Of a DNA stretch of 28,069 nt, positions 1 through 17,306 are shown one piece after another; positions within the stretch are counted from its first letter, which is position 1, and each line of letters starts with the position of its first letter. This stretch comes from an uncultured bacterium (lineage in GTDB: Bacteria; Lernaellota; Lernaellaia; Lernaellales; Lernaellaceae). A program made the translations under genes and the position numbers. The stretch lies in contig CAZHPN010000067.1 in the NCBI GenBank assembly GCA_964534375.1, positions 1 to 28,069 of the forward strand. The letters run 5' to 3'. The notes beneath the pieces are model-generated. The model saw only the letters and a list, made by a program, of their open reading frames with translations, did no database searches and was not told the DNA's origin.

Positions 1-45
1 CAGGCCGGCGGCGATCAGGTCGGTGAGGAACGCGGCGGGGCTCAT
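1..45 (-). CDS. ABC transporter permease, second subunit (5' fragment, runs off the window)
   Basis: ATG at 45-43 overlaps the TGA stop of the upstream permease (ATGA coupling). Reads MSPAAFLTDLIAAGL. BMP-type nucleoside ABC operons normally have two permeases in this position. Only 15 codons are visible. Confidence 0.65.
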   Translation of the reverse strand, partial: MSPAAFLTDLIAAGL

Positions 46-1139
46 GGTTGCGCCTCCGGCGCAGGCGCGGCGCGGCGAATCACGACGCGATACCGACGGA
101 ACGCCTCGAACGCGATCACCGTCAACAGCAGCGCGCCTTGCAGCAGCAGCGCCACGCCCAGGCTGCCGACCTCCTTGCCGCCGACGAGGATGCCGCCGAA
201 GACGAACGCCAGCGCGACGGTCGCCCACGGGTTCAGCCGCGCGAGCCAGGCGACGGCGATCGCGGTGAAGCCGAAGCCCGGCGAGAAGCGCTCCTGCAGG
301 CGATGCGCCACGCCGGCCGCTTCGACCGCGCCGGCGAGCCCCGCCGCGACGCCGGAAAGCGCCATCGCCAGCATGGTGTGAAAGGCCACGTTGATGCCCG
401 CCGCCGCGGCGGCGCGCGGGTTGTCGCCCATCGCCGTCCAGGCCATGCCCCAGCGGCTGCGCTGCATCAGCACGGCCAGCGCCGCGGCGACGACGAGCGC
501 GAGCGGCAACCCGGCGTGGATGGTCAAGCCGGCCAGTTGCGGCCACACGCCGGCGAAATCGGCCAGCCGCGGCAGGTGGGCGCCGGGCGGGAACAGCGGC
601 GTTAACTGAAAGCCGCGGTCCGTCCACGGCGAATAAATCCAGTACAAATTCCACTGCGCGGCGACGTACACGAGCATCAGCGACGTGAGGATTTCCGACA
701 CGCCAAACCGAACTTTCAGCGCGCCCGGAATCAGGCCCCACAAGCCGCCGAGCGCGCCGCCCGCGAGCATCATCAACGGCAGCTTGAGCCACGGCGACAA
801 ATCGGCCGGCGTCCAGAACGAGGCCACGCCCGTCGCGGCCCACGCCCCGAGCAGCAGTTGCCCTTCGGCGCCGACGTTCCAGAGCCCCGCGCGAAACGCC
901 AGCGCGCAGCCGACGCCGCAGAGAATCAGCGGCGCCGTTTTGACCGCCGTGTCGGAGAGCGCGTACGCCCCGCCGAAAAACGCCGCGCGAAAAATCGCCC
1001 GGTATGCCGCCAGCGGCGGCAGACCCGCGGCGGCCATGACCACGCCGCCCGCGAGCGCCGCGGCGGCCACGGCCAGCGCGACGATCAACGCATCGGCGGC
1101 CGGCGGCAGTTTCTGGCGATGGACGATCTCAATGCGCAC
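42..1139 (-). CDS. ABC transporter permease, nucleoside/simple-sugar type (BPD_transp_2-like)
   Basis: Highly hydrophobic, with motifs AFRAGLWNVGAEGQ, GVSEILTSLML, GDNPRAAAAAGIN and GFGFTAIAVAWLARLNP. Start reassigned to GTG at 1139, which has GGAGG just upstream and overlaps the ATPase stop. Confidence 0.92.
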   Translation of the reverse strand: MRIEIVHRQKLPPAADALIVALAVAAAALAGGVVMAAAGLPPLAAYRAIFRAAFFGGAYALSDTAVKTAPLILCGVGCALAFRAGLWNVGAEGQLLLGAWAATGVASFWTPADLSPWLKLPLMMLAGGALGGLWGLIPGALKVRFGVSEILTSLMLVYVAAQWNLYWIYSPWTDRGFQLTPLFPPGAHLPRLADFAGVWPQLAGLTIHAGLPLALVVAAALAVLMQRSRWGMAWTAMGDNPRAAAAAGINVAFHTMLAMALSGVAAGLAGAVEAAGVAHRLQERFSPGFGFTAIAVAWLARLNPWATVALAFVFGGILVGGKEVGSLGVALLLQGALLLTVIAFEAFRRYRVVIRRAAPAPEAQP

Positions 1140-2661: not shown

Positions 2662-2678
2662 GTCCACGGCGGCGCGGC

Positions 2679-3938
2679 TTACTTGGGGATTTCGCCGATG
2701 ACGCCGTCCACGAAGATGGGCATGCACGCGGCGCAATCGGGGCGGCCCGCCACGCCCTTGACGCCTTCGAGATCTTCCTGGGTCAACGACTTGCCCGCCG
2801 GCACGATCTCCACGCCTTTATTGCTCTTGAGCGGCCCTTTGAAGATGTCGAAGCGCGTCAGCTTGCCCTCTTTCATCGCCGTCAGCCGCTCTTTGACGAT
2901 CGCCGCGGTCGCCGCGGGCACGCCCGGCGCCGGCCGCTGGTTTTCCATGAAGCCCAGCAGGCCGAGGGCGTTGTCTTTCAGGCTCGGATAGTCGTCGCTC
3001 GGTTTCCACGTGCCGGCCTTGATCGCCTTGACGATCCGCACGTAGCTGGCGCCCCAATTCCAGTAGGGCACGGTCAGGCAGTGCGCCGGGTCGCCGTTGC
3101 AGGCGTTGTCGGAATTGTAGCCGGTCGACCACTTGCCGGCTTTGCCCGCGGCGACGATCGGCCCGCTGGTGTCGTTGCCGGTCATCACGACGTCGGCGCC
3201 GGCGCCGAGCAGCGATTCCGCGGCTTCCTTTTCTTTCACCGGGTCGAACCAGGAATTGACCCACCGCACTTCCAGCGCGCAGTTCGGGCAGGCGGCTTTC
3301 ATGCCGAGCGCGGAGGCGTCGATCAGGCGCACAACCTCGGGAATGGGCATCGGGGCGACGTAGCCGAGGCGCTCTTTGCCGTCGGCCTTGGCGCGGGCGC
3401 CGGCGATCATGCCGGCGAGGTATTTCATGTCCTCCATCGCGCCGAACAGATTGCCGAAATTCGTGGCGTTTTTCTTGAAGCCGGAGATGTGCAGGAATTT
3501 GACCGCCGGGAATTCCTTGGCGACTTCCTCGCAGGCGTCCATGAACCCGAAGCTGGCGGCGACGATCAGGTCGAACTTTTTCCGCGCCAGCGAGCGGATG
3601 ACCTGCTCGGCCTCGGCGCCCTCGGCCACCGACTCGACGTACGCCGTCGCCACGTCCGGCATTTCCTTTTCGAGATATTTGCGGCCCTGGTCGTGCGCGT
3701 AGGTCCAGCCGCCGTCGCCGACCGGACCGACATAGACGAACGCCGCGTTGAACTTGCCGGCGACCGGCTCGGGAATTTTGTACTTGGCCGCCGGCGCGGC
3801 CGCGGGCGGCGCCAGACGGACGATTTCCGGCCGGACGAGGGCGACGCCGGGCTTTGCCGGCGGGGCGGTTCGTTCGCATGCTGCGAGGAAAAGTACGCAC
3901 AACATCAACGCCGCCGTCGCGATCTTTCTTGCCGCCAT
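2679..3938 (-). CDS. BMP family ABC transporter substrate-binding lipoprotein (Med/PnrA-like, probably purine/nucleoside)
   Basis: Lipobox LAAC, motifs FVYVGPVGDGGWTYAHDQGR, SFGFMD, YLAGMIAG and WVNSWFDPVKE. GGGAGG RBS. First gene of the ABC operon. Confidence 0.92.
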   Translation of the reverse strand: MAARKIATAALMLCVLFLAACERTAPPAKPGVALVRPEIVRLAPPAAAPAAKYKIPEPVAGKFNAAFVYVGPVGDGGWTYAHDQGRKYLEKEMPDVATAYVESVAEGAEAEQVIRSLARKKFDLIVAASFGFMDACEEVAKEFPAVKFLHISGFKKNATNFGNLFGAMEDMKYLAGMIAGARAKADGKERLGYVAPMPIPEVVRLIDASALGMKAACPNCALEVRWVNSWFDPVKEKEAAESLLGAGADVVMTGNDTSGPIVAAGKAGKWSTGYNSDNACNGDPAHCLTVPYWNWGASYVRIVKAIKAGTWKPSDDYPSLKDNALGLLGFMENQRPAPGVPAATAAIVKERLTAMKEGKLTRFDIFKGPLKSNKGVEIVPAGKSLTQEDLEGVKGVAGRPDCAACMPIFVDGVIGEIPK

Positions 3939-4026
3939 CGCCGTCGCCTCCCGTCGGTTGTTTGTTTTTCCGCGTCCGCGGGTATGGGAATTGAGCGGGT
4001 TATTTTTATCACAATCGCGGCGCGGC

Positions 4027-4068
4027 GGAAAGCGGAAACGCGCAGCGCCGCCGGGCGGCGTCGCGCGT
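4027..4068 (-). terminator. possible intrinsic terminator after the giant TPR gene
   Basis: Minus strand reads CGCGCGACGCCGC-CCG-GCGGCGCTGCGCG, a GC hairpin, followed by TTTCCGCTTT. The U tract is weak. Confidence 0.35.
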
Positions 4069-7000
4069 CAGTTCGCGGTCAGCACGTCTTTGGCGTGGGC
4101 GATCTTGTCGGGTTCGTCGCGAAAAACCTTCTGCACCGCGGCAAATGCCGCTGCCGCTTTTCCCGAATCGCCTGCGGCTTTGTGGGCCGCGATCAAGATG
4201 CAATACCCTTCGTAGAGGCGCCCGCGGTCGTCAAAGTCTTTCAACGCCGTCTCCAGCAGCGCCGCCGCCCGCGCGGGTTGTTTCAGGCGTTGCAGAAAAT
4301 CCGCGTGGCGCAGGTCGATGACGTCGCGCTCGCCGCCCTTGTTCGGCCACTGGGCGCGCAGCCGGGCGACGATTTTTTCGACCTCATCGCCGCGGTTTTG
4401 TTCGGCGAGCATGGCGGCGTACGACAAGCCGCCGTTCAGCGTCCAGTTCGACGGAGGCTCGTCGAGCAAGGCGGAGAAGGTGGCGGCGGCTTTGGCGAAA
4501 TCGCCCCGATCGCGATAGGTATTGCCGAGCTCGAGACGGGCGCATTGGCCGCCGTCGCCGTGCGGGTCGCGCGCCGCGGCGTCGATGAACAACGGCTGCG
4601 CCTTGTCCGGCAATCCTTGGCCGACGTATCGTTGCCCGAGCCAGACTTGCAGCCCGACAATGGACTTCGGGTCGCCGCCGACGTTTTTCACGGCGGCGCG
4701 GTAGGTGGCGTCCATGGCGGCCAGATCGTCCTGCGCCAGCTCGAATTGCAACAAGAGAACGTACCCTTGGACTCGTTGCGCCGGGGTTGTCAATTGCGGA
4801 AATTCCGGATTGAGCAGCGCGATCGCCGCCGGGAATTTCTTCTCCGTGGCCAATAACTGCGCCCGACGGAACACGACATCGACGTGGTCGGCGGAACCGC
4901 GCGGAACGCGGGACAGCAGTCCGGCATAAATCGCGTCGGCCTCGGCGAATTGCTTGTCCGCGATCAACATGTCGGCCAACTGGTCGCCGGCGGCCACGGC
5001 GTGGGACGCGAGGCGATTGTCCGACAACGTTTCCCGCAGCAATTTCTGCGCCGCCGCGCGGTCGCCGTGGTCGCGCAAGGCCGCGGCCAATCCCAACGCG
5101 GCGTCGCCGGCGAATTTTGCCGCATGCGTAGCGAGGATCTCGCGGAAGACGACCGCGCCTTTCTCGAATTGGCCGTGGCCGACGTAAAGATTCGCGAGGG
5201 AAAGTTTCAACGACCAGAACCGGTCGGGGTCGCTGGCGAGCCCCTCGGTCGCCTGCTTGAATGCCGCTTCCGCGCCTTTAACGTCGCCCGCGTCGACGCA
5301 AAGCTCCATGAGCGAGACCGCGGCGTCGGCCTGCCGCTGGGCGTCGGGCAGCAGCGGCAGCGCCTGACGCACCGCCGCGAGCGCTTCGCTGTTCCGCCCT
5401 TGTTGCCGGTCCACCGACGCCCGCTTAAGGAGCGTTGCAGCCCGCAGATCCGGTTGAGCGCCGAAGCGCCTGAGCATCGCCGTCAGTTGACCGTCCGCTT
5501 CGCGAAATTTCTTCTGTTCGACGAGAATGTCGACGACGGTCGCGGCAAGATCATACGCGCGTTTCGCGTCGCGCTCGCCGTCGGCCAACTCACGATACGC
5601 CTGTTCCGCCTTCCCGAGTTCGCCCTTGCGGCGCTGCCAGGACGCCAGTTCGCGCTTCGCTCGCGCCGCCGCGTCGGTTCGCGGGAATTTGGCGACGACG
5701 GCGGCGTATAGCGCCGCCGCCCGGTCGTCGAGGCCCTTGTCGGCATAGATCTTCGCCAGGTCGACTTGCGCCTGCGCAAGAGCGGCCGGATCGCCGCGCA
5801 GGCTTTGCGCGGCATTCTGGAAGACGGCCTCCGCCGACTTAACGTCGCCGGCGGCGACGTACAACTCGCTCAACCGCAGGCTGGTTTCCACGAACTTTTC
5901 CGATGTGCGAAGCGCCGGCAATTCGGCGCGCAGCAGCGCCATCTGGGCGGCGGGCTGGCCGGCGCGCTCGAGCGCATTGGCTTCACGCAGGACGATTTCG
6001 CTGCGGCGCGACGCGTCGTTGGACCACTTGCCGCGCAGGAACTCGTACACTTTTTGCGCCTCGCCAAAGGATTGTTGATCCTCTAGCACGTCGGCCAGCG
6101 TCAGGCCGGCCCGCAGGCCGATCTCCGGATCGTTGGCCTGCGCCAGCGCCTCGCGCAACAACGCCGCGGCCTGGGCCAGGTCGCCGCCGCTCCGCAGGCG
6201 ATCCGCCAAATCCAACCGCGCCTGCGCCGCCGCGCCCGCATTGGGATAGCGCGCGACGATTTCGCGGAAGGCCGCGTTCGCCTTTTCCATTTGTCCCTGG
6301 GCGACGTAGAGATCCGCCATCATCGTGTCCGCGCGGATTTGCGCGTCGACGTCGCGGGCGAACTCGCTGCGCATTCCTCGTCGCGTCTGATCGGCGGCGC
6401 CGAAGTTCCCGGCCGCCAGTTGCAGTTCCAGCAATTTGAACGTCGCCTCCAGCCGCTTTTCAGGCACGACGATTTTGGGAATTTCGGCGACGACCAGGGC
6501 GATCGCGGCGTCGAATTGCCGTCGCTGCCGCAGCAGCGCGGCCCGCCGGAAAACGAGGTCCGTCCGCTCCGTCGGCCGCAAGGCCGGCCGTTTTGCCAAA
6601 TCGGCGTACACCGACGCCGCTTGCTCGAAGGCCTGTTCGCCGATCAGGATGTCCGCCAGCGCAAAGCCCGCGTCCAGCGCATGGCCCGCCGGATCGGGCT
6701 CGGCGAGAAGCTGCTGGAATTGGGCTTTGGCGCCCGCGTCGTCGCCTCGTTCCCGCAGCGCGCCGGCGAGGCTCCACCGGGCATCGGCCACGACCCTAGC
6801 GTCCGGGTGCTTGGCGATGATATCCCGGAGGAGGGCGGCGCCTTTCTCAAATTGCTCGTGGCGCACGCAGGTCTCGGCGAGCGACAACTTGATTTGCCGC
6901 ACGCGGCCGGGATCGTCCGCGGACGCCCGCACCGCCTCGTCAAATGCGTTTTCCGCACCTTTGATGTCGCCGCGGGACCCGTAGACCTCAATCAGCGCCA

Positions 7001-10000
7001 CGCTCGCTTCCGCGCGTTTTCCGGGGTCGTCGAGCAGCGGCAGCGCTTGCCGCAAATCCGCGATCGCCTCGTCGTACCGATTTTGCTGACGGTGCAGATC
7101 CCCGCGGTACATGAGAATCGCCGCGCGCGGCGCGGGGCGATCACCCCACTTTTTCAACATCGCCGCCAGTTGCCGGTCCGCCTCCGCGTACTTCTTCTGC
7201 TCGGCCAGGATCTCGACGACCGCCGTCGTCGCTTGCATGGCCTGCGTCTCATCGCGCGCGGATTCAAACAATTCGCGATAGGCCCGTTCGGCTTTCGCGG
7301 CGTCGCCGCGGCGACGATACGACGCCGCCAATTCGCTTCTCGCCCGCGCTGCGGCGTCAGTCCGCGGGCGCTGAGCGATCACCTCCGCGTAAATCGCCAT
7401 CGCCCTGTCTTCGAGATTGTTCTCGGCGTAGATTTTCGCCAGATCGACTTGCGCGCTCGCGAGGGACGCCGCATCGCCGTGCAAAGCCTGGGCGACATTC
7501 AGGAAAACCGCCTCGGCCGACTTGATTTCGCCGGCGACCACGTAAAGCCCGATCAGCCGCATGCTGAGTTCGACGAACTTGCCCGTGTCGCGGATCGCGG
7601 GCAATTCCGCGCGCAGCAACGCCGTCTCCGCCGCGGGATCGCCCGCCCGCCGCAACAGTTCGGCTTGGCGCAGGGCGATCTCCGCCCGTCGCGCCGGGTC
7701 GGCCGACCATTTCTGGCGGAGCAACGCAAAAACCTTCTGCGCTTCGCCATACGAGTTCTGCTCTTCCAGGATGTCCGCGAGCATCGTCCCGGCACGGACG
7801 GCTTCGTCGGCATCGTCGGCGACGGCGAGCGCCTCGCGCAACAGCTTTTCCGCCTGGACAAGGTCGCCGCTCTTTCGAAGCCGTTCCGCGAGTTTCACCC
7901 GTGCTTTCGTCGCCGCGGTGGAACGGGGGAACTCCGCGATGATTTCCCGGCTCAGCGAGTCCGCTTTATCGGCCTGTCCCTGGGCGGCGTAAAAATCAGC
8001 CACCATTGCGTTCGCCCGGAGCAACGCATCGATGTCTTTCGGAAATTCGGCGCGTATTCCGCGCCGGGTCTGGTCCGCAGCGGCGACGTCGCCGCCTGCC
8101 AGATGGAGATCCAGCAGCTTGAACATCGCCTCCATTCGATGTTGCGGGTCCGCAATATTCGGCAACTCGCGGACGATCACGGCGATCGCGGAGTCGTATT
8201 GTTGCTGCTGTTTCAACAACTCCGCGCGCCGAAAGACAATCTCGGCCCTATCCGCCGGCCGCAGCGCTGCCCGGTTCTCCAACTCTGCAAGTACGGCGTC
8301 GGCTTGATCGAATTGCCGTTCGCCGGCCAGGATTTCCGCCAGGCTGACGCCGGCCTCGACGGCGTGGCCGGCCGGGTCGCCGGCGGCAAGCAGTCCGTGC
8401 AATTGCTCGACGGCTTCGGCGGTTTCGCCTCGCGTTCGCCAAATTCCCGCCAACCGCCACCGCGCCTCGGAAACCGCCTTTTCGTCCGGGCATTTTTCGA
8501 CGATCTCCCGATACAAGGCCACGCCTTTTTCGGCTTGGTCGTGGCCGAGGCATGCTTCCGCGAGCGACTGTTTCATCTGCCACACGCGCCGCGGATCCGT
8601 GACCGAGGTTTCGATCGCTTCCCGGAAGGCGACCTCCGCGCCGTTAATGTCGCCGCGAAGCGCGCAGAGATCCATGAGCGCCACGCTCGCTTCCGCCCTT
8701 TTTTCCGGTTCGTCGAACGACGGCAGGGCTTGCCGCAAAATCGCGATCGCGTCGACGATGCGGTTTTGGCGGCGAAGCAAATCGACGCGCAGCATGACGA
8801 GCGCCGCTTTTTGGTCGGGACGACCGGTCCACTTCCGGCGCATCTCCTCCAGCAGCTTATCGGCTTCCGTGTATTTTTCCTGTTCGAGCAAGATTTCCAA
8901 GACTTTGGCCGCGGCCTGAAAAGCCTTTGCCGCGTCGGGCTGGCATTCGGCCAATTGGCGATAGGTCTTCTCGGCGCTGGCCAAATCGCCGCGTCGCCGG
9001 TGCAAATCGCCGAGCCCGTCGCGGGCCTCCAGCGCCGCGTCCGTGTGCGGATATCGGGCGATGATCTCGCCGAATGTTTTTGCCGCCCGATCGAGCAAGT
9101 CGTGGCCGGCAAAGAGTCGGCCGAGGCTGAGCCTCGCTTTCGCCAATTGCTCGGGAAAGCCTTTGAAGGGCGTCCCCGCCAATTGCACGACCTGTTCCGC
9201 CTGGTCGACATCGCCGGCGGCCGAATAAATGTCGAGCAATAGCGACAACGCCTCGCCCGCACTGACGACATCGCGGAACGACGGCAACTCCGTGCGGAGC
9301 AAGGCGGCGGCGGCGTCCGGACTCCCCGCGCGACGCAACAGCCGCGACCTGGCGAGAACGAGTTCTTCCCGGCGTCTTTCGTCGGCCGACCATTTGCGGT
9401 TCAGATCCTCGAGAACGGCGCGCGCCTCGGCAAACGAATTCTGTTCCGCCAACGTGTCCGCGAGCGACAAACCCGCCCGGTACGTCCGGTCCGGATCGAA
9501 GGGATCGCTCCGAAGTTCGCCGTAGTACAGGGCTGCTTTGGGCAGGTCGCCGGTTTTGCGATAAAGTTCCGCCAATTCCCATTTGGCGTCCGCGCCGACG
9601 GACGTTTCGGGGTGATCCGCCAGAATCTGCCGATAAATCGCCTCGGCTTTTTCGGCGAATCCCTGGTTCGCGTAGCCACGCGCCATCGACCGGTCCGCGT
9701 GCAAACGAGCCGCCGCATCCTGCTCGGGATCCTCGTAAATGCTCCGGCGAACTTGCTCCGCCGCGGTCGTATTTCCCGCCGCTACGAGGAGGTCCAGCGA
9801 GGCCAGGGCGGCATAGCTCCGGTCCTCGCGGTCCTCGAATTGCGGGGCTGCTTCTCGCAGCAGAACGAGCGCCTCATCCCCTCTTCCGGATTCTTCCAGC
9901 GCGGCGACCCGTCGTTTGAGAATTTCCGTACGTTGCGAACCCGAGGGCCAGCGCTTTTCCATGCCCACGAGCAGGGCCACGGCCTCGTCGATCTTTCCTT

Positions 10001-12275
10001 GCGTCCGCAGGGCGTCGGCCAGCATCAATCCTGCTGCATAGGCCTCCGCCGGATTTCCCTTCTCGTACTTTTCCCGATCGGCCCGCGCGGCCTTGTCCCG
10101 GGCGTCCGCCAATTCGCGATAAATTCGCGCCGCCTTCTCCGTCGCGCCCGAGCGGCTGTACAAATCGGCCAGATCGGCCATGGCGGAACCGACGACATCC
10201 GGCCGCGATGAATGCGCGATGAGTTCTCGCAAGATCGACGCCGCCGGATCCGTCATGCCTTTCGCAATGTAGATCCGGCTCATCGCGCGTTTGGCGTCGA
10301 CGAGGCGGTCGCGATCGCGGCGGAAGGTTGCGATCATGTCGACATAGAGCGCCTCGGCGGCCGGTAGATCGCCGTCGCCCGCATAGGTCGTCAGCAACAG
10401 CATGTCGGCCTCAAAACGCGACCGGGCGTCCTTGATGTCGCGAACCTTCGCCTGCAACAGCGCCAGCGCTTTTTGGGTTTGGCCCGTCTCGAACAAGAGC
10501 CGAACGTGCGCGAGAATCAATTGGCCGCGCTTCTCGTCGGTCGTCGCCCGCTGCGCCATTTCCGCGAACAGCGCCTCGGCTTCCGGGATCTTGCCTTGTT
10601 CCCGATACAGTTCGGCCAGAGTTGCTCCCGCGTCGACCGACTGCGGCGCCTTGTCGTATTTATCGTAGACGGCGCGGTATTCGCGTTCCGCCGCCGCCCA
10701 ATCGCCTCGACGCCGAAATGCCTCGGCGACCGCCGTGGCGGCCATCGCCTGCGTCGAGACGGCATTGGACGACGAATCGTAGGCGTCCAGACGGGCCAAC
10801 GTTTCGACCGCCTCGTCGAGCCGGTCGAACTGGCAAAGCAAGCGAATCGCTTCCAGCAGCGCCCGGTTGCCGGTGGGAAGATCGAAGCGAAATTTCTCGA
10901 AGACGGTCCGATATTTGGCCAGCGCTTCCTCGTCGCGCCCGTCTTTCTTCAGCAGTTCGGCGAGACCGAACTCCGCTTTCGCCTCCGTCTCGGGGTTGCC
11001 GGCGTCGGCCTCGCGCAGTCGTTGGTACGCCGCGCGCGCCTTTTCCGAGTCGCCCCATTGCTCGTAAATGCCCGCGATCATTTCCAACGCTTGGGCGGAT
11101 TCGCGATCGCCGTCAAAGGCGGCGGCAATTTCCTGCAGCATCGCCAGCGCCGTCTGCCGCTGGCCCCGCTGTGCGTAGTGGGACGCGATCGACAGCTTGG
11201 CTTCGCCGATCCGATCGCGATCACCGGCGTATTTTTCGATGATGACGCGCTCCAACGCGACGGCGCGTTCCAGTTCGCCCCGTTCGTAGAGCTTCTGCGC
11301 CCGCCCGTGCAGGACTTCGTATGACCAGTGATACGGATCGGCAAAAAACCGATAGGCGGAGACAAACACGGCGACCAGAATCGCCGCGACGGCGATTTTC
11401 ACCGCCAGGCTGCGCCAAAGCAACCGCAGAAAACGGCGGAACAAAAACAGATCGATCAGCGCGCCGCGTTCCTGCATGGCGCGGAGATCTTTTTCCAGAA
11501 TTCCGTACACGCCTTTAAACAACGCCTTGTCAAGATTGGCGCCGTCAAAGGCGACGGCCTGGTGTTGCGACCGGTTGAACAGGGCTTCCGCGAGATCGGC
11601 GCCGGCGAAGTTCACGTTTTTCAGAATCGCGCCGAAAAACCTCGCGGCCGGCAGACTCGCTCGCGAAAAATCTGCGGCCTTGATTTCGGCAAACGAAAAA
11701 TCCGCGGCGGGCGCCGACATTTCCGCGGCCCTGACGCGTTCGAAGCGGCACTCGCGAAACGCCGACTCGCGGAGTTCGGCGCCGCTCAGATCGACGTCGA
11801 CGGCGATCGTTTCGCCCGCATCGGTCCCCGTCAGGTTCGCGCGAATCAACTTGGTCCGTTCCAGCCGCGCCGCGCGCAGCACGGCGTACGAGATATCGGC
11901 GCCGCTCAAATCGGCGTCCCGGAAAACAGCCTTGTCGAAGATCGCCTCGCCCGCTTTGACGTCGACGAGCTTGGCGCCCGTGAAATCGGCCTGGTTAACT
12001 TTGGCGCGACGCAGATCGGCGCCCGACAAGTCCGCGCCCGTGAAATCCGCTTCGCGCAGATCGGCGCCGGCGAGGTCGGCGCCGGCAAGGTCGGCGTCGC
12101 GCAAGACGGCCTTGCGCAGGTTGATGCCCGCCGCGGCTATTTTCCGCAGCTTCGCCGCCCTGAGATCGGCTTTGGACAGCTTCAAACCGGCGAGGCTTTG
12201 CCCTGCGAGTCGGCCCGTCTGCGCCTCGGCGATCACGTCCTTTGGTGTGAGACCGTCTCCCATGTTTTTCTCCAC
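4068..12275 (-). CDS. giant (2735 aa) membrane-anchored protein: N-terminal pentapeptide repeats, one TM helix, about 65 TPR-like repeats
   Basis: A(D/N)LxG/A pentapeptides at about aa 23-255, hydrophobic IAVAAILVAVFVSAY, then about 2400 aa of LA..Y...G....A...Y helical hairpins. Start is GTG 12275 (GAGGAAGG upstream) or ATG 12263 (GGAG upstream). Confidence 0.92.
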   Translation of the reverse strand: MEKNMGDGLTPKDVIAEAQTGRLAGQSLAGLKLSKADLRAAKLRKIAAAGINLRKAVLRDADLAGADLAGADLREADFTGADLSGADLRRAKVNQADFTGAKLVDVKAGEAIFDKAVFRDADLSGADISYAVLRAARLERTKLIRANLTGTDAGETIAVDVDLSGAELRESAFRECRFERVRAAEMSAPAADFSFAEIKAADFSRASLPAARFFGAILKNVNFAGADLAEALFNRSQHQAVAFDGANLDKALFKGVYGILEKDLRAMQERGALIDLFLFRRFLRLLWRSLAVKIAVAAILVAVFVSAYRFFADPYHWSYEVLHGRAQKLYERGELERAVALERVIIEKYAGDRDRIGEAKLSIASHYAQRGQRQTALAMLQEIAAAFDGDRESAQALEMIAGIYEQWGDSEKARAAYQRLREADAGNPETEAKAEFGLAELLKKDGRDEEALAKYRTVFEKFRFDLPTGNRALLEAIRLLCQFDRLDEAVETLARLDAYDSSSNAVSTQAMAATAVAEAFRRRGDWAAAEREYRAVYDKYDKAPQSVDAGATLAELYREQGKIPEAEALFAEMAQRATTDEKRGQLILAHVRLLFETGQTQKALALLQAKVRDIKDARSRFEADMLLLTTYAGDGDLPAAEALYVDMIATFRRDRDRLVDAKRAMSRIYIAKGMTDPAASILRELIAHSSRPDVVGSAMADLADLYSRSGATEKAARIYRELADARDKAARADREKYEKGNPAEAYAAGLMLADALRTQGKIDEAVALLVGMEKRWPSGSQRTEILKRRVAALEESGRGDEALVLLREAAPQFEDREDRSYAALASLDLLVAAGNTTAAEQVRRSIYEDPEQDAAARLHADRSMARGYANQGFAEKAEAIYRQILADHPETSVGADAKWELAELYRKTGDLPKAALYYGELRSDPFDPDRTYRAGLSLADTLAEQNSFAEARAVLEDLNRKWSADERRREELVLARSRLLRRAGSPDAAAALLRTELPSFRDVVSAGEALSLLLDIYSAAGDVDQAEQVVQLAGTPFKGFPEQLAKARLSLGRLFAGHDLLDRAAKTFGEIIARYPHTDAALEARDGLGDLHRRRGDLASAEKTYRQLAECQPDAAKAFQAAAKVLEILLEQEKYTEADKLLEEMRRKWTGRPDQKAALVMLRVDLLRRQNRIVDAIAILRQALPSFDEPEKRAEASVALMDLCALRGDINGAEVAFREAIETSVTDPRRVWQMKQSLAEACLGHDQAEKGVALYREIVEKCPDEKAVSEARWRLAGIWRTRGETAEAVEQLHGLLAAGDPAGHAVEAGVSLAEILAGERQFDQADAVLAELENRAALRPADRAEIVFRRAELLKQQQQYDSAIAVIVRELPNIADPQHRMEAMFKLLDLHLAGGDVAAADQTRRGIRAEFPKDIDALLRANAMVADFYAAQGQADKADSLSREIIAEFPRSTAATKARVKLAERLRKSGDLVQAEKLLREALAVADDADEAVRAGTMLADILEEQNSYGEAQKVFALLRQKWSADPARRAEIALRQAELLRRAGDPAAETALLRAELPAIRDTGKFVELSMRLIGLYVVAGEIKSAEAVFLNVAQALHGDAASLASAQVDLAKIYAENNLEDRAMAIYAEVIAQRPRTDAAARARSELAASYRRRGDAAKAERAYRELFESARDETQAMQATTAVVEILAEQKKYAEADRQLAAMLKKWGDRPAPRAAILMYRGDLHRQQNRYDEAIADLRQALPLLDDPGKRAEASVALIEVYGSRGDIKGAENAFDEAVRASADDPGRVRQIKLSLAETCVRHEQFEKGAALLRDIIAKHPDARVVADARWSLAGALRERGDDAGAKAQFQQLLAEPDPAGHALDAGFALADILIGEQAFEQAASVYADLAKRPALRPTERTDLVFRRAALLRQRRQFDAAIALVVAEIPKIVVPEKRLEATFKLLELQLAAGNFGAADQTRRGMRSEFARDVDAQIRADTMMADLYVAQGQMEKANAAFREIVARYPNAGAAAQARLDLADRLRSGGDLAQAAALLREALAQANDPEIGLRAGLTLADVLEDQQSFGEAQKVYEFLRGKWSNDASRRSEIVLREANALERAGQPAAQMALLRAELPALRTSEKFVETSLRLSELYVAAGDVKSAEAVFQNAAQSLRGDPAALAQAQVDLAKIYADKGLDDRAAALYAAVVAKFPRTDAAARAKRELASWQRRKGELGKAEQAYRELADGERDAKRAYDLAATVVDILVEQKKFREADGQLTAMLRRFGAQPDLRAATLLKRASVDRQQGRNSEALAAVRQALPLLPDAQRQADAAVSLMELCVDAGDVKGAEAAFKQATEGLASDPDRFWSLKLSLANLYVGHGQFEKGAVVFREILATHAAKFAGDAALGLAAALRDHGDRAAAQKLLRETLSDNRLASHAVAAGDQLADMLIADKQFAEADAIYAGLLSRVPRGSADHVDVVFRRAQLLATEKKFPAAIALLNPEFPQLTTPAQRVQGYVLLLQFELAQDDLAAMDATYRAAVKNVGGDPKSIVGLQVWLGQRYVGQGLPDKAQPLFIDAAARDPHGDGGQCARLELGNTYRDRGDFAKAAATFSALLDEPPSNWTLNGGLSYAAMLAEQNRGDEVEKIVARLRAQWPNKGGERDVIDLRHADFLQRLKQPARAAALLETALKDFDDRGRLYEGYCILIAAHKAAGDSGKAAAAFAAVQKVFRDEPDKIAHAKDVLTAN
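4251..10454 (-). repeat. intragenic tandem 561-bp (187-aa) modules grouped into 1683-bp (561-aa) supermodules
   Basis: The equivalent codon of the L-L-R-x-E/A-L-P motif lies at 10452, 9855, 9294, 8733, 8172, 7611, 7050, 6489, 5928, 5367, 4809 and 4251. Spacings are 597, eight times 561, 558 and 558. Confidence 0.9.
11510..12209 (-). repeat. pentapeptide repeat domain (about 45 units)
   Basis: e.g. ADLAGADLAGADLREADFTGADLSGADLRRAKVNQADFTG. Confidence 0.9.
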
Positions 12276-12337
12276 TACGCCTTCCTCAGGGAACTCGCCC
12301 GCGGCGACGATGCCGGCGCGGAATCCGGCGGCGCTTG

Positions 12338-12366
12338 ATTATTGAATACGCGGGGTTCCGCGTCAA
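12338..12366 (-). promoter_or_regulatory. putative sigma70-type promoter of the giant gene
   Basis: TTGACG-N17-AATAAT on the minus strand, in the 134-bp intergenic gap, about 60 bp upstream of the start. Confidence 0.5.
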
Positions 12367-12409
12367 CGCACGTCCGAAAAAGTCGACCCGGCCGCGCTTT
12401 CCGCTCGCG

Positions 12410-14431
12410 TCACTTCAGAAGGTCCAGCGCATACTCGCGCCGGCGCGGATCGATCGTTCGCAACGTTACGCCGCGGCGGGCCAGTCGGTCGCGCAGCGGC
12501 GGCAGAACATCCGCTTCGCCGTAATAACGAAAGCGATGGCGTTCCGTGATCAACCACTGGGCATAGCCTTCCGCCAGGCCGGCGACAAGATCGCGTCGTC
12601 CGCTTTCGAGGAACTCAGCCGACAGTTCGTCGCCCGGCGGCGCCGTCCATGACGCCACGATGCCGTCGGCCTCGCGCGGCGTCGGCAACACGATCTGGTC
12701 ACCGTAGAAAATTCCCGCGCCCCGCAGCATCGCCCGCCGGAACGCCGCGTCGTCAAGCTGGCGAAAAACGGCGCGAAGATGCCGGACCAGGGCGTCGTGC
12801 GCGCAGATCGCATCCCGCGCTCGCTGCGTCTCCGTTCGTTTCTCGTTTTCGAGATACTGCATGACCGCGCCGGAGGCCGCTTCCCCGGCGGCTTCGGCGT
12901 CCACTTGCGCCAGCCTTTCTCGCCAGGCGGCCGGCAGCGCCTCGCGCGGCCCGGCGCCGGGCGCCTCGTCCGGCTCGGGGCAGGCCCGCGGCTCGATTTC
13001 CGGCTCGAGCTTGCGCCCGAGTCCGAAGGCGATAAACGGCCGCTCCTGCGGCCGCGCGGGCGGCTGTTGCAAAAGCAAAGTCAGAACCTTTTCGGGTTCG
13101 AGCCAGCGGCCGACCGAGACCCAGCCGTCGTCCCGCCACCGTCGCGGCAGGCGGGCGATCGAGCGCGCGGCAGCGTCGATGTCGCCGTCCCAACCGAGAT
13201 GCAAGCGGTTGACGATGACCTGATAATCCTCGCCGCGAAATCCCACGAGCGTCCGCCAATTCTGGGAAAACGCGACGAGGTCGCCGGGGAAGATCGCCGC
13301 GAAATTGACGAAGCCGGCGATCAGAAACGGCGCCGCGACCGCCCATTTCAGAAAACTCGGCGCGCGCCCGAGCAGAAAACAGGCGAAGGCCGTCAAGATC
13401 GGGAAAATCGGCAGGAAATACCGCGAATAGAAACCGCCGTGCGCCGTCGCGAAGGCCGCGATCCAAAACACCAAAAACAGAGCCAGCAAGCGGCTGAGCC
13501 GGTCCGCCGCCGTCGTCGGACAGTGAAAAAATCCCGTCGCGACCACATCGAAATTTGCCAGGATCAATCCGCCGATCGCCGCAACGAAAAAAATCAGCGA
13601 TAAATGAGGCAGCCACGCAATGTCATAGCCGGCCAGCCGCGGCAATTCGCCGCCGAGATCGATCAACCGCCGCCAGAACTCCGGCGACGCGCCGCCCCCG
13701 ACGGGCGGCCGCGGGCCCGCGCGCAGCAGGACGTACGGAGAAAAAGCGAGCGCAAAACACGCCGCGCCCGGCCAAATCGCGCGCGCCAGGCCGCGCCAGC
13801 GCCATTTCCACACGGTCATCACGCCGGCCGCCGCGCAGACCGGCAGATTTTGCAGGCAGAAAAACGAGGCGAAGCCCGCGAGCAGGCCGAAGCCCGCCAC
13901 GGCTTTCCGGCTGGGCAGGTCGTTGCTCTGGCGCTGAAACAGATATAGCAGCAGGCCGCCGTAGAAAATGCTGTCCAGATGGTTGGCCTTGAAGACGGAT
14001 GCGTTTTCGCCAAATAACGGCGGCGGCAAGAGGCAGAACAAGAAGAACAACACCGCGGGCGCAAATCCCCACGCCTGGCGCAACAGCAGCGTCCAAAGGC
14101 CGACGCCGGCGCTGAGAAAAAGAAAGCCTAGCAATTTGATCCATAACGCGTGGGAACCCGCCGCCCAGTAAATCGGCGACAGGAGCAGTCCGTACACCAC
14201 GGGGCCGTAGCTCTCGCCGTAGGTGTAAAGGCGCGGCGACGTCGCGAACCCGTCGACGATTCCCGCCGCCAGCAAGCCGTCGCCGACTTCCTCATAGTCC
14301 TGCGAAACGCAAAACGACAACCGGTAGGCAAACGCGACGACCCACAGCGCGGCCAGCACGATCCACAGGATCGTCTCCCACCGCCGGTTGTCTTCCCAAG
14401 TTTGCGTCGCGGCTGCCATGCCGGCGATCAT
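12410..14431 (-). CDS. polytopic membrane protein, probable GT-C fold glycosyltransferase (ArnT/PMT-like) with a C-terminal soluble domain
   Basis: About 10-11 hydrophobic segments in the first 390 aa, acidic QDYEE after TM1, YGPVVY, GLLAGFASFF and RYFLPIFP. Family assignment is by pattern only. Alternative start ATG 14419. Confidence 0.7.
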   Translation of the reverse strand: MIAGMAAATQTWEDNRRWETILWIVLAALWVVAFAYRLSFCVSQDYEEVGDGLLAAGIVDGFATSPRLYTYGESYGPVVYGLLLSPIYWAAGSHALWIKLLGFLFLSAGVGLWTLLLRQAWGFAPAVLFFLFCLLPPPLFGENASVFKANHLDSIFYGGLLLYLFQRQSNDLPSRKAVAGFGLLAGFASFFCLQNLPVCAAAGVMTVWKWRWRGLARAIWPGAACFALAFSPYVLLRAGPRPPVGGGASPEFWRRLIDLGGELPRLAGYDIAWLPHLSLIFFVAAIGGLILANFDVVATGFFHCPTTAADRLSRLLALFLVFWIAAFATAHGGFYSRYFLPIFPILTAFACFLLGRAPSFLKWAVAAPFLIAGFVNFAAIFPGDLVAFSQNWRTLVGFRGEDYQVIVNRLHLGWDGDIDAAARSIARLPRRWRDDGWVSVGRWLEPEKVLTLLLQQPPARPQERPFIAFGLGRKLEPEIEPRACPEPDEAPGAGPREALPAAWRERLAQVDAEAAGEAASGAVMQYLENEKRTETQRARDAICAHDALVRHLRAVFRQLDDAAFRRAMLRGAGIFYGDQIVLPTPREADGIVASWTAPPGDELSAEFLESGRRDLVAGLAEGYAQWLITERHRFRYYGEADVLPPLRDRLARRGVTLRTIDPRRREYALDLLK

Positions 14432-14532: not shown

Positions 14533-15789
14533 TTACGCCAGTTTGTATTCCATCACGGCCAGCGCCAGTTTTTCGGCGTAGTCGATCGAGAACATCAGCT
14601 TTTCGTAGTCGAGGTTCGCCGGCGTGTCCGTGCGCTGGTGATAATGCAGCGGACTGCCGATCACCGGGTCGATCGCGGCCAGGCAGACGCCTTCCCAGCC
14701 GTGGGCCATGAACGCCGAAACGTCGGACCCGCCCACCGGCACGTCGAAGCCGGTGACCTCGGCGAAGCGCGGCTCGGAGGCGGTGACTTCCTCGCAAACG
14801 CCCCGCAGCCAGTGCGGCATCGGCGTGCGGATGACCTCGCCCTCGCCGGCCAGATATCGCAGTTCGCCGTTGGTCAGGCCGTCCATCCCGAGGATGACCG
14901 TTTTCGATTTGTCCCATACGCCTTCACGCGCGCGAGCCAGCGCATCGGCGCCGCCCAGACTGGCTTCTTCGCAACCCGTGACGACGAACACCAACTCGAC
15001 GTTGTCGGGTTTTCGCGGCGCGAGCCGTTGAATCATGATCGGCAGTGAGGCCACGCCGCTGAGGTCGTCGTTGGCGCCGGGCACGATTTCATTGCGCAGC
15101 ACCATCTCCAAATTCATGACGAAGGCCAGGAAACCGGGCAGCGTCAGCAGGAATTCGAGCGGCCGCAACGGCAGCGCCAGCGGCCCGATCGCGCAGCGAA
15201 TCAGATCGATGCCGGCGAGCGCAAACTGCGTCCGCGTGGCCAGCGCCAGCCCGCGTTTAATAAAGCCGAGCCCCGGGGGCGCCTCGCCCGAAAAATTCTT
15301 GACGACTTTCGGGTTGAAGAGCAAGCCGGTGAACGCGGCGTCGGCGTGCGCCAGAAACACCAAGCGCAGATCGGGCTCGCCCTTCGCCGGAATCGTCGCC
15401 ACCAGATTCTGCGACGCTTTGAACGGCAACAGGCGGCGCAGGAAATAGCCGCGGCGCGTCGATTCGGCCAGATACGACGAACCGGCCGTCAGATGCAGCG
15501 CCAGCCCGGCCAGCGGCGCGACGCCGGACACGATCGAGCCGAGCGTGCCCAGGCCGAAATGGAGCGCGAGGTTCGCGTATAAGTTGTCATTGAACCAGAA
15601 GGCCTCCTCGTGCGCAGTCAGGCCGAGTTTCGCGAATTCCTCTTTCATGAGCAATTGCGCGCGATGCTCGTCGTCGCTCGTCGGCCGGCGCACCGGGCAC
15701 GTATCGACGATCCGTTCGATCAATTCCTGGACATATTGGCGTTCGGCGCGAATTCGCCGTTGCGGGCGCGTTTTGGCGGCTGCTTCCAT
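14533..15789 (-). CDS. M28 family zinc metallopeptidase
   Basis: Metal and catalytic motifs AHAD, GANDDLSG, GCEE, MDG, GSDVSAF and YHQRTDT. AAGGAG RBS. Confidence 0.88.
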   Translation of the reverse strand: MEAAAKTRPQRRIRAERQYVQELIERIVDTCPVRRPTSDDEHRAQLLMKEEFAKLGLTAHEEAFWFNDNLYANLALHFGLGTLGSIVSGVAPLAGLALHLTAGSSYLAESTRRGYFLRRLLPFKASQNLVATIPAKGEPDLRLVFLAHADAAFTGLLFNPKVVKNFSGEAPPGLGFIKRGLALATRTQFALAGIDLIRCAIGPLALPLRPLEFLLTLPGFLAFVMNLEMVLRNEIVPGANDDLSGVASLPIMIQRLAPRKPDNVELVFVVTGCEEASLGGADALARAREGVWDKSKTVILGMDGLTNGELRYLAGEGEVIRTPMPHWLRGVCEEVTASEPRFAEVTGFDVPVGGSDVSAFMAHGWEGVCLAAIDPVIGSPLHYHQRTDTPANLDYEKLMFSIDYAEKLALAVMEYKLA

Positions 15790-17158: not shown

Positions 17159-17306
17159 CGGCGCCTTTTCCGGTCGTTGCGACGGTCACTTCTTTTTCCA
17201 CATCCAGGTAAAAAGATAAACCCTGTGCGCGGGGATACTCCCGAAATCGAGCGCGGGCCGTTATACTCCGCCCATCATGCAATCGCCGAAACCAAAAGGA
17301 TCGACC

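Follow-up and report, generated by a model that had tools for sequence, protein, structure and literature searches.

What does a bacterial cell do with a protein of 2,731 residues that runs from a pentapeptide-repeat beta-helix, across the membrane, into a tetratricopeptide-like (TPR-like) solenoid? We addressed this question for one gene in a 28,069-nucleotide stretch of DNA (the window) from an uncultured Lernaellota bacterium.

Gene boundaries and integrity

4068..12275, (-) strand: coding sequence, a single intact ORF of 2,735 codons from GTG plus stop
12263, (-) strand: alternative ATG start, four codons past the GTG and preceded by GGAG; product 2,731 aa
12338..12366, (-) strand: sigma-70-like promoter candidate, TTGACG-17-AATAAT, lying 63 nt 5' of the GTG

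The gene for the giant protein is real. A public collection holds an identical 2,731-aa protein (P0002) with the ATG start on a 61.6-kb contig. DNA contigs from runs X2 and X3, two other samples, tile the gene with 0 differences, so the misassembly that the first-pass annotation had flagged as a risk at the domain junction can be set aside and the fusion is genuine. These independent wetland contigs cover 30/30 depth bins, and a single contig (10834-11463) joins the beta-helix, the transmembrane helix and the TPR region. That annotation had also given the gene a candidate promoter of its own. The site is present, with 10/12 matches, and is the sole one within 3800-12700, but its count (1 observed) is at the level of shuffled sequence (mean 0.9 sites per 8.9 kb), leaving only position to favor it as a candidate. 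A contig from an RNA library (run X5, 12150-12311) stops between the candidate and the start codon, which is a weak hint in its favor.

Domain architecture

11505..12197, (-) strand: pentapeptide-repeat right-handed quadrilateral beta-helix, aa ~27-257, 46-47 units, predicted cytoplasmic
4071..11318, (-) strand: TPR-like alpha-solenoid, ~65 helix pairs, ~2,415 aa, predicted periplasmic
8193..9875, (-) strand: super-repeat copy A, aa 801-1361, three modules
6510..8192, (-) strand: super-repeat copy B, aa 1362-1922
4827..6509, (-) strand: super-repeat copy C, aa 1923-2483

The domain order is pentapeptide beta-helix, basic juxtamembrane helix, one transmembrane helix and TPR-like solenoid; Pfam, NCBIfam, hydropathy and AlphaFold2 all bear out the three-part layout first read from the sequence. 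Pfam assigns Pentapeptide (PF00805, 107 bits in 6 stretches over aa ~20-260) and PF13599 (66 bits) to the beta-helix and many TPR families, among them TPR_14, TPR_19 and TPR_16, from aa ~320 to the C-terminus. All families among the best 25 of 26 Pfam matches listed are pentapeptide or helical-repeat models, and NCBIfam agrees (best 25 of 33 matches listed), in keeping with the reported absence of a catalytic domain.

AlphaFold2 model 1 (aa 5-480, pLDDT 91.5) places a strand every 5 residues over model residues 23-253 at pLDDT 95-98, which amounts to 46-47 pentapeptide units where about 45 had been counted; a cap helix, an amphipathic helix, a 23-residue transmembrane helix and helix pairs follow. 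The top Foldseek matches are HetL (3du1), Np275/276 (2j8k), QnrB1 and MfpA. HetL, Np275/276, Qnr and MfpA have the beta-helix fold in common with the giant protein (E 1e-12 to 1e-6) but are soluble proteins of 180-240 aa, whereas the helix described here is membrane-tethered, has a net charge of 0 (+3 to -13 among relatives) and lies under all NCBIfam family cut-offs.

The solenoid comprises a ~107-aa lead-in, 12 full modules of 187 aa (aa 427-2670, with 5 helix pairs each by module alignment; 13 modules in the overall count) and a 65-aa C-terminal cap; self-comparison gives offsets of 187, 374 and 561. In AlphaFold2 model 2, which covers one super-repeat (aa 1362-1922, pLDDT 91.3), 30 helices per 561 aa correspond to 37.4 aa per pair and hence to ~65 repeats over ~2,415 aa, matching the original estimate of about 65 repeats of 37-38 aa. 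Foldseek relates the super-repeat to generic long TPR superhelices. Copy A aligns with copy B ungapped and in register at 47% amino acid and 58% nucleotide identity, and copy C with copy B at 49% and 60%. Judged from their amino acid identities, the 561-aa super-repeats are old. Their divergence, a dN/dS of ~0.35-0.45 and a longest exact nucleotide match of 20 between copies indicate selection and rule out assembly collapse.

Membrane segment and topology

11412..11495, (-) strand: beta-helix C-terminal cap and basic amphipathic juxtamembrane helix (RGALIDLFLFRRFLRLLWR; alignment A2, AlphaFold2)
11340..11411, (-) strand: single transmembrane helix, aa 289-312 (Kyte-Doolittle; AlphaFold2 helix 286-308 in model numbering)
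11319..11339, (-) strand: predicted periplasm-side motif D/N-P-x-x-W-S-Y straight after the transmembrane helix; P and W invariant in 15/15 (A2)

Kyte-Doolittle analysis in 19-aa windows yields only one strong peak (2.41; aa 289-308, nt ~11352-11411), where a single transmembrane helix had been proposed at about 11345-11400, and the family members examined have a comparable peak at the equivalent position. By inspection the N-terminus has no hydrophobic stretch and therefore no evident signal peptide, as initially noted. FRRFLRLLWRS immediately precedes the hydrophobic helix. Nowhere on the predicted cytoplasmic side is the family better conserved than at 11412..11495: in alignment A2 (15 sequences), G267 is invariant and F273, R276, R277 and R280 are conserved at >=90%, with AlphaFold2 helices at 257-265 and 274-284. 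On the other side, the D/N-P-x-x-W-S-Y motif was employed as the family search pattern. The 15 residues before the helix carry 3-8 K/R and 0-1 D/E in 22/22 family members, and net charge over 25 residues is higher on the N-side in 21/22; under the positive-inside rule, we infer a cytoplasmic beta-helix and a periplasmic solenoid, the orientation suggested at the outset. The genome encodes BamA (664 bits, above cut-off), which implies an outer membrane and periplasm. The best explanation of these sequence features is that the host is a diderm Lernaellota bacterium and the giant protein a bitopic inner-membrane protein.

A small family and its longest member

A literature search found no characterized protein sharing the pentapeptide-TM-TPR architecture, as the first-pass annotation had supposed, and the excerpted text of the PRP review PMC8145042 mentions TPR 0 times. 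The architecture is nevertheless not the one-off it had seemed. The window's own genome (G000) holds 7 paralogs, and 9/16 genomes of the same family or class contain an open frame of 1,692-2,120 aa with a matching N-terminal region. Pentapeptide and TPR families occur together in at least 19 proteins among 120 database matches listed, under generic names only. Uncharacterized Lernaellota (FEN-1099) proteins, such as P0076 of Candidatus Lernaella stagnicola, a 2,091-aa 'tetratricopeptide repeat protein' (its N-terminus is identical to that of the G001 relative), match the giant protein in domain order, juxtamembrane motifs (RGAxVDxFLxRR..., NPxNWSY) and TPR type. The giant copy is 640-1,190 aa longer than these relatives, owing to two extra 561-aa units. 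In a quick tree it falls within a clade of six paralogs (C67, C1, C139, C85, C55 and C87; SH-aLRT 100) that is confined to the window's genome among those searched, and it is the longest of this lineage-specific group. The C1 paralog is collinear with it but for the two extra units, and on this sequence comparison the giant copy grew by retaining two extra three-module units. Within this small and hitherto unstudied family, no other member is as long.

Genomic context

12410..14431, (-) strand: P0122, upstream neighbor, 673 aa; N-terminal half with 8 hydrophobic segments, C-terminal half soluble
14533..15789, (-) strand: M28 peptidase (Pfam PF04389), same strand, second gene upstream of the giant gene

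We surveyed 8 ortholog loci with 6 kb per side, scanning the 93/197 ORFs of >=130 aa that passed a GC3 filter. A GT2 glycosyltransferase is present at 7/8 loci, and a co-directional GT2-AsnB-like-GT2 set lies directly upstream at 5/8; the AsnB-like gene is missing at three loci of the window's own family (G001, G003 and G005). At G015, the sole locus scanned with NCBIfam, ArnC-type polyprenyl-phosphate sugar transferases are the best-scoring models for the first GT2; for the amidotransferase, the XrtA/PEP-CTERM amidotransferase model gives 413 bits, under its cut-off. Other neighbors include a GDSL/SGNH protein directly downstream (3/8), a 9-TM protein of ~610 aa (family X, 4/8) with a weak GT-C (AftB) match (E 1.9e-7), and acyltransferase-3 (2/8). 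These gene neighborhoods point to envelope glycan assembly.

The window copy lies outside a glycan cluster, unlike its Lernaellota (FEN-1099) relatives, its GT-C-like neighbor excepted. This neighbor, P0122, matches no Pfam or NCBIfam model, but its ESM Atlas features match, at a score of 0.99, a cluster in which 49% of the proteins carry PMT_2, and its structure has TM 0.51-0.55 to PMT_2/ArnT/TMEM260-like clusters; P0122 probably adopts a GT-C (PMT_2/ArnT-like) fold. BLASTP and hhalign (probability 0.6%) detected no relationship between P0122 and family X, and the GT-C assignment of both families is weak or indirect. P0122-family genes abut the giant gene and its sister paralog on C1, or 2/7 paralogs only, and with 36 paralogous ORFs of this family in the genome some adjacency is expected by chance. 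Paralog C139 has a PMT_2 gene 1.4 kb upstream. The M28 peptidase is 63% identical to M28 genes of G013 and G015, where these adjoin a GT-C-like gene at the orthologous TPR locus; the M28-TPR linkage is absent in 4/4 other same-family genomes checked. Downstream of the giant gene lies a Bmp/PnrA-type ABC transporter, and comparison of the 7 paralogs revealed no further common neighborhood.

A putative scaffold for envelope glycan assembly

We tentatively propose, at a probability of roughly 0.45, that the giant protein is anchored in the inner membrane and acts in the periplasm as a scaffold for the assembly of envelope glycans or glycoconjugates. The solenoid would serve for docking and not for catalysis; kept at the outer face of the inner membrane, it may organize enzymes and/or substrates of a pathway using polyprenyl-phosphate-linked sugars and GT-C-type transferases. 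The conserved motifs that flank the membrane on its two sides would likely contact a membrane partner, and the beta-helix may serve as a rigid cytoplasmic handle.

Several known systems resemble parts of this arrangement. BcsC, PelB, PgaA, AlgK and PrsT (PEP-CTERM system) have a long periplasmic TPR solenoid, as predicted here, and like the family have glycosyltransferases and polysaccharide-modifying enzymes encoded alongside; the periplasmic location of the BcsC TPRs is given in an excerpt of PMC11379886, and PrsT is the second-best NCBIfam model for the giant protein (211 versus a cut-off of 312). In these exopolysaccharide proteins a beta-barrel or a lipid provides the anchor, to or in the outer membrane, and there is no cytoplasmic domain, whereas the giant protein has an inner-membrane signal-anchor helix and a predicted cytoplasmic beta-helix. 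TMTC1-4, placed in the GT-C/PMT clan in an excerpt of PMC7801869, and bacterial PMT_2-TPR proteins fuse a GT-C transferase using polyprenyl-phosphate sugars to lumenal or periplasmic TPRs. They likewise pair a GT-C-type membrane enzyme with non-cytoplasmic TPRs, but here separate genes encode the putative GT-C-like protein and the TPR protein, and the TPR array is several-fold longer. Anabaena HglK is a pentapeptide-repeat membrane protein required to localize heterocyst envelope glycolipids (PMC8145042, in excerpt). The giant protein resembles it in being a membrane-bound pentapeptide-repeat protein; the genetic tie to envelope glycolipid deposition is that of HglK. HglK has several transmembrane helices and C-terminal repeats and is not known to carry TPRs, in contrast to the one helix plus TPR found here.

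Alternative readings

The solenoid could instead belong to a general periplasmic organizer unrelated to glycans, akin to CpoB/YbgF, LpoA or flagellar PflB, although we consider this rather unlikely. Such a scaffold would coordinate peptidoglycan, outer-membrane or other envelope machines. The top NCBIfam model is the C-terminal TPR domain of the periplasmic envelope coordinator CpoB/YbgF (TIGR02795, 278 bits, 10 stretches), which best resembles the TPR units; Foldseek rank 10 is a Campylobacter flagellar motor periplasmic scaffold (9hmf_K), and paralog neighborhoods are heterogeneous. However, the TIGR02795 score adds up the individual repeats, TM-scores from Foldseek are low and generic (0.3-0.5), and glycosyltransferases are the recurrent neighbors, with no tol-pal, PBP or flagellar genes adjoining the giant gene or the 8 ortholog loci. 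CpoB itself is a ~260-aa protein with a signal peptide and coiled coil, encoded in the tol-pal operon, none of which is seen for the giant protein.

Alternatively, the solenoid might bind a ligand or sense the envelope and signal through the single helix to the beta-helix. In such a sensor the beta-helix would sequester or free a cytoplasmic target, e.g. a topoisomerase or regulator. The most conserved residues do flank the membrane on both sides, as for a coupling element, and Qnr, MfpA and HetL work by protein binding (PMC8145042, in excerpt). Against this stand the absence of HAMP, kinase, cyclase and anti-sigma modules in Pfam and NCBIfam and of any regulator gene among conserved neighbors, making a sensor unlikely. 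The neutral beta-helix, variable in charge among relatives, and Qnr/MfpA scores far below cut-off count against it too; the net charge of 0 and these scores also leave a DNA-mimic role for the beta-helix unsupported.

A trans-envelope rod or molecular ruler spanning the periplasm and setting a distance, also entertained at first, fits poorly and is improbable. AlphaFold2 renders a long, regular, rigid-looking solenoid anchored at one end. TPR superhelices have ~8 repeats per turn and a 6-7 nm pitch; if these typical values hold, 65 repeats would extend ~50-58 nm, which exceeds usual periplasm widths. Solenoids of ~650, 1,300, 1,430 and 2,420 aa (~17, 35, 38 and 65 repeats) coexist in one cell, so a fixed length is unlikely and no single periplasmic width fits all. 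The C-terminus also lacks an outer-membrane anchor, lipobox or beta-barrel.

Still less probable is an inverted or non-membrane topology. LapB is a membrane-anchored TPR protein on the cytoplasmic side, and TPR similarity therefore cannot separate the two compartments; LapB models match the solenoid partially (130 bits), and Sec translocation of 2,400 aa would be demanding. Yet the LapB score is far under its cut-off of 363, the N-in charge bias holds in 21-22/22 members, and an N-terminal domain of 285 aa is unlikely to be exported if no signal peptide precedes it; a 20-23-residue helix with the hydropathy given above and an aromatic belt argues for a true membrane segment. Finally, a misassembled fusion or spurious ORF in GC-rich DNA has nothing specific in its favor beyond the general risks of metagenome bins and repeats and is negligible, given the same fusion in 7 paralogs and at least 9 other genomes, junction-crossing contigs without differences from two other samples, copies with at most 20 identical bases in a row and two confident AlphaFold2 models.

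On the scaffold reading, which we favor, this family probably helps to build or decorate the sugars of the cell envelope.

Architecture of the giant protein

The giant gene and the neighbours considered here are arranged in the window as follows.

42-3938 (-): downstream operon separated from the giant gene by 130 nt, encoding a Bmp/PnrA-type substrate-binding protein, an ABC ATPase and a permease
4068-12275 (-): giant pentapeptide-TPR gene
12366-12338: promoter-like site
12410-14431 (-): P0122, a GT-C-like membrane protein
17277-19316 (+): second member of the P0122 family
19377-20537 (+) and 20550-21689 (+): two tandem paralogous purple-acid-phosphatase-like metallophosphoesterases
21775-22848: fatty-acid desaturase, after the tandem pair

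The giant ORF comprises 2,735 open codons starting at a GTG, and an alternative ATG, preceded by GGAG and lying four codons past the GTG, gives the 2,731-aa form found in a public protein collection (P0002, from a 61.6-kb contig). Pentapeptide models match residues ~20-260, and a dozen TPR-type models extend from ~320 to the C-terminal end; the 25 of 26 Pfam families listed for the protein are pentapeptide or helical-repeat models only, in agreement with NCBIfam (25 of 33 families listed). The Pentapeptide repeat superfamily is delimited by an uninterrupted run of eight or more A(D/N)LXX-type repeats above the Pfam gathering threshold; for PF00805 that threshold is 20.2 bits, and the giant protein reaches 107.1 bits over six stretches, which places it in the superfamily. 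An AlphaFold2 model of residues 5-480, built on 15 family sequences (pLDDT 91.5), shows strands recurring at five-residue intervals between model residues 23 and 253, giving 46-47 pentapeptides in ~11.7 coils, close to the roughly 45 counted in the first-pass annotation. With a pLDDT of 95-98 and Foldseek matches to HetL, Np275/276, QnrB1 and MfpA, this domain is predicted to form the right-handed quadrilateral beta-helix of the superfamily. Next in the model come a cap helix and an amphipathic helix, then a TM helix of 23 residues and, after it, helix pairs; the only strongly hydrophobic window of the protein (residues 289-308, Kyte-Doolittle 2.41) follows the basic stretch FRRFLRLLWRS, which bears out the single TM helix proposed earlier. 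A two-copy homodimer prediction for residues 1-345 on the family alignment scored 0.00 against a mark of 0.42, in a run without controls.

The C-terminal region qualifies as a TPR/TPR-like alpha-solenoid, that is, repeated antiparallel helix pairs of ~34-40 aa above Pfam thresholds (TPR_14 185 bits, TPR_19 175.5, TPR_16 147.3). AlphaFold2 folds residues 1362-1922 into 30 helices in 561 aa (pLDDT 91.3), or 37.4 aa per pair, and extrapolation from this spacing gives ~65 helix pairs for the whole solenoid, the number first estimated from the sequence alone. Self-comparison by windowed BLAST reveals offsets of 187, 374 and 561 aa: the base module is 187 aa, or five helix pairs, with 12 clean alignments across residues 427-2670, and a 65-aa C-terminal cap ends the solenoid after the modules. 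Neighbouring modules are ~30% identical, and a three-module unit of 561 aa occurs three times (residues 801-2483). An alignment of the super-repeat used in the analysis is staggered, with 1,190 columns. Compared in register, adjacent copies have 47-49% amino acid and 58-60% nucleotide identity, the longest exact nucleotide run common to copies is 20 nt, and dN/dS is ~0.35-0.45 with dS saturated. We therefore regard the copies as old and maintained by selection, and short reads would not mix them up. Against PDB sequences, the sole match to the super-repeat is a designed protein (E 2.5e-4).

Integrity and possible expression of the gene

Parts of the giant gene are present in ten sequencing runs. 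DNA contigs from two other wetland samples (X2 and X3) cover 30 of 30 bins with zero differences, and one X2 contig (10834-11463) spans the beta-helix, the TM helix and the first TPRs, which answers the concern that the two domains were joined by misassembly. Contigs identical to the gene are also found in two RNA libraries (12 of 30 bins in X5 and 9 of 30 in X6, without a silent control stretch), including pieces over the TM region and one that extends 36 nt upstream of the GTG. The candidate promoter proposed earlier exists as a site with 10 of 12 matches, although a site of this quality is statistically expected in such a region by chance.

Within the region 3900-12450, some contigs join distant positions: 6183 to 4092 in X2 and X3, with 11 extra letters, as well as 5944 to 11131 and 5002 to 6906 (X6), with all three net skips being multiples of 3. 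None of the three passes the joint criteria for a join, and the listed pieces rest on 18-base matches; we therefore consider that these contigs probably represent paralogs, relatives or other organisms rather than deletion alleles.

Predicted membrane topology

In the 22 family members compared, the TM helix is preceded by 15 residues with 3-8 K/R and 0-1 D/E and followed by 15 residues with 0-4 K/R and 1-4 D/E, and over 25 residues the net charge is higher on the N-terminal side in 21 of the 22. This charge bias, together with the lack of a signal peptide, suggests a cytoplasmic beta-helix with the solenoid outside, consistent with the orientation the first-pass annotation drew from the positive-inside rule; since the genome encodes BamA (664 bits), 'outside' would be the periplasm. 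A cytoplasmic location for the TPR part conflicts with the same charge bias.

A small Lernaellota family with seven copies in one genome

Among the 120 matches listed for the first 420 residues, 19 combine pentapeptide with TPR families; their sources name them no more specifically than 'tetratricopeptide repeat protein' or 'pentapeptide repeat-containing protein', and one comes from Candidatus Lernaella stagnicola. Database relatives have in common RGAxVDxFLxRR ahead of the TM helix and NPxxWSY behind it, and K250, G254, G267, P310 and W313 are invariant in all 15 aligned sequences. We accordingly define a Lernaellota pentapeptide-TM-TPR family by a ~240-aa beta-helix, an RGAxVDxFLxRR juxtamembrane helix, one TM helix, NPxxWSY and a TPR array, every element of which is present in the giant protein by alignment, charge pattern and tree. 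A second class has ~1,350 aa of pentapeptide repeats ahead of the helix, one member being labelled Myxococcota. The family is small, as the 101-aa membrane-proximal segment recovers, out of 1.84 billion, just 20 representatives at E <= 1e-3; a motif-based search with a narrow alignment returned five loci, all from uncultured MAGs (one FEN-1099), and no new taxa.

The genome of the window (6.3 Mb, 381 contigs) encodes seven family copies.

Family copies in the genome of the window, by contig
C67: 2,731 aa, the giant gene
C1: ~1,605 aa
C139: ~1,600 aa
C85: ~1,600 aa
C55: 907 aa in database
C87: at least 917 aa, cut by contig end
C159: ~1,760 aa

In a quick maximum-likelihood tree, all but the C159 copy form one clade (SH-aLRT 100), and C159 groups with proteins of ~2,090 aa from Ca. 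Lernaella and its kin. The C1 paralog is collinear with the giant protein, which has two additional 561-aa units. The C87 paralog (L005) carries a Q/R-rich, low-complexity, heptad-like insert in mid-solenoid, with ~70 aa of RRLRLAQQQRRDAEAIQL-type units. In the C55 paralog (L006/L008, G000:C55:3267-4262), the pentapeptide part is spread over two frames, 3267-3521 and 3519-4262, suggesting a frameshift or sequencing error, and the database form begins later. Beyond this genome, 9 of 16 same-family or same-class genomes encode a 1,692-2,120-aa open frame with a matching N-terminal region, and several additionally hold a ~1,000-aa form.

The available portion of the phylum-naming paper equates Lernaellota with FEN-1099 and makes no mention of pentapeptide or TPR proteins (PMC9324843); the Ca. 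Lernaella match and the MAG titled FEN-1099 agree with Lernaellota. The terms 'TPR' and 'tetratricopeptide' have zero occurrences in a 2021 PRP review, and our literature searches found no paper describing the pentapeptide-TM-TPR architecture, in keeping with its having gone unrecognised at first pass. This is a real, ordinary-looking and unstudied gene family of unusual architecture.

Comparison with characterised systems

Qnr and MfpA are small soluble proteins with an anionic DNA-like surface, whereas the giant protein's beta-helix is a membrane-tethered domain of a 2,735-aa polypeptide with a net charge of 0 over residues 5-265 (38 K+R, 38 D+E; -13 to +3 in relatives). It scores 58 against a cut-off of 240 on the Qnr equivalog model of NCBIfam and 36.3 against 360 on that of MfpA, and scores, size, tether and charge lend no support to a DNA-mimic assignment.

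Among TPR proteins, the CpoB/YbgF model (TIGR02795) reaches 278 bits against a cut-off of 90.1, which is passed only because repeats are summed, over ten stretches of a 119-position TPR model. CpoB/YbgF itself belongs to the tol-pal operon and is exported, with a length of ~260 aa and a coiled coil at its N-terminus, whereas the giant protein has 2,735 aa, no signal peptide and an N-terminal beta-helix, and its gene lies between one for a GT-C-like protein and those of an ABC transporter. Scores fall below cut-off for PrsT, the XrtA/PEP-CTERM TPR lipoprotein (TIGR02917; 210.6 against 312.2), and for LapB/YciM (129.6 against 363). LapB/YciM carries a C-terminal rubredoxin-type zinc finger; the ten cysteines of the giant protein are scattered, the last three (residues 2326, 2578 and 2692) more than 100 residues apart, with no C-terminal cluster. 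BcsC/PelB/PgaA-type proteins have a C-terminal outer-membrane beta-barrel or lipid anchor, whereas the giant protein ends in a TPR cap conserved among paralogs and shows no outer-membrane anchor among the models listed, which are pentapeptide and helical-repeat families only. TMTC/PMT_2-TPR enzymes combine a GT-C domain and TPRs in one polypeptide; no GT-C family is found in the giant protein by Pfam or NCBIfam, and the GT-C-like protein is encoded by a separate neighbouring gene. As functional analogues, the TPR scaffolds that polysaccharide systems have in the periplasm and the TPR portions of TMTC/PMT_2 enzymes come closest; the giant protein differs from both in its inner-membrane anchor, predicted cytoplasmic beta-helix and separately encoded GT-C-like partner.

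Gene neighbourhoods

No neighbourhood is common to the seven paralogs (58 ORFs scanned). Unlike these, eight long-ortholog loci in relatives do have a common neighbourhood (197 ORFs of 130 aa or longer, of which the 93 passing a GC3 filter were scanned).

Gene families at the eight long-ortholog loci
GT2: 7 of 8
Family Z, membrane family: 6 of 8
GT2-AsnB-like-GT2: 5 of 8, directly upstream, same strand
Family X, ~610-aa 9-TM: 4 of 8, weak match to the GT-C enzyme AftB (E 1.9e-7)
GDSL/SGNH protein: 3 of 8, directly downstream
Family Y, membrane family: 3 of 8
Acyltransferase-3: 2 of 8
M28 peptidase: 2 of 8

At the one locus scanned with NCBIfam (genome G015), the best-scoring models for the first GT2 are those of ArnC-type polyprenyl-phosphate sugar transferases, and the amidotransferase, at 413 bits, stays under the cut-off of the XrtA/PEP-CTERM amidotransferase model. 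Family Z proteins are 600-685 aa long with a hydrophobic segment at both ends and no Pfam match (L036-L051; G001, G003, G005, G009, G013, G015), and family Y proteins are 551-557 aa, 9-TM, with a faint STT3 match.

Directly upstream of the giant gene, P0122 is a 673-aa protein with eight hydrophobic segments and no Pfam match, which in a protein atlas adjoins PMT_2/ArnT/TMEM260-like GT-C clusters (features 0.99; structure TM 0.51-0.55). Its family counts 36 ORFs in this genome against 0-2 in relatives, and one copy also abuts the C1 sister paralog. Members are ~700 aa long, with 8-9 hydrophobic segments, a ~270-aa soluble C-terminal half and no Pfam or NCBIfam match; besides the two in the window they occur on C17, C32, C75, C3 and other contigs, including tandem arrays of 3-4 copies. 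BLASTP finds no similarity between P0122 and the PMT_2 gene of C139, hhalign gives a probability of 0.6% for a match between the P0122 family and family X, and the P0122 profile has no PDB match below E 0.36. No GT-C-TPR fusion occurs among the 36 ORFs, the longer open frames being stop-to-stop artefacts or tandem copies. The M28 gene two upstream of the giant gene is 63% identical to those at the G013 and G015 ortholog loci; in four of four other same-family genomes M28 is unlinked to a TPR gene. On the downstream side, no terminator-like site lies between the giant gene and the ABC transporter operon. Taken together, the ortholog neighbours, P0122 and the M28 results suggest a scaffold that acts in the periplasm, within a pathway using lipid-linked sugars, with the link thin for the giant paralog itself.

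Possible functions and significance

Other roles can be weighed against a scaffold. A transmembrane sensor would relay a periplasmic signal to the beta-helix, but the protein is without any output module, and the helix charge varies among relatives from +3 to -13, with 0 here. The molecular ruler suggested at first pass, or a spanning rod, does not fit the range of ~17 to 65 repeats among paralogs of one cell. A defence role finds no support in PADLOC, with no match for any of four proteins (the giant protein and three neighbours).

The scaffold reading has a more specific and rather unlikely version, to which we would give about one chance in seven: that pentapeptide-TM-TPR proteins select the substrates, as detached subunits, for a periplasmic glycosylation system of a 'split TMTC-like' kind. 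An ArnC-like GT2 would make polyprenyl-phosphate sugars in Lernaellota, GT-C-like transferases (the 36-copy P0122 family) would dock on membrane-anchored TPR scaffolds of differing length, and the scaffolds would offer the lineage's many tethered, exported envelope proteins for glycosylation. If true, seven scaffolds and 36 transferases would together glycosylate proteins in a combinatorial way, on a scale undescribed in bacteria.

The building and export of diderm envelope polymers depend centrally on membrane-anchored TPR scaffolds, which to our knowledge hang from the outer membrane without a cytoplasmic part. The pentapeptide-TM-TPR family would reverse this anchor and add a rigid cytoplasmic beta-helix. 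Its four-fold length variation in one cell, by clean module duplication, offers a natural series relating scaffold length to function, and one of the many pentapeptide-repeat proteins of unstudied role would be tied to a concrete, testable pathway. If the link to the expanded GT-C-like family holds, it would indicate an extensive envelope glycosylation system in a phylum known only from metagenomes.
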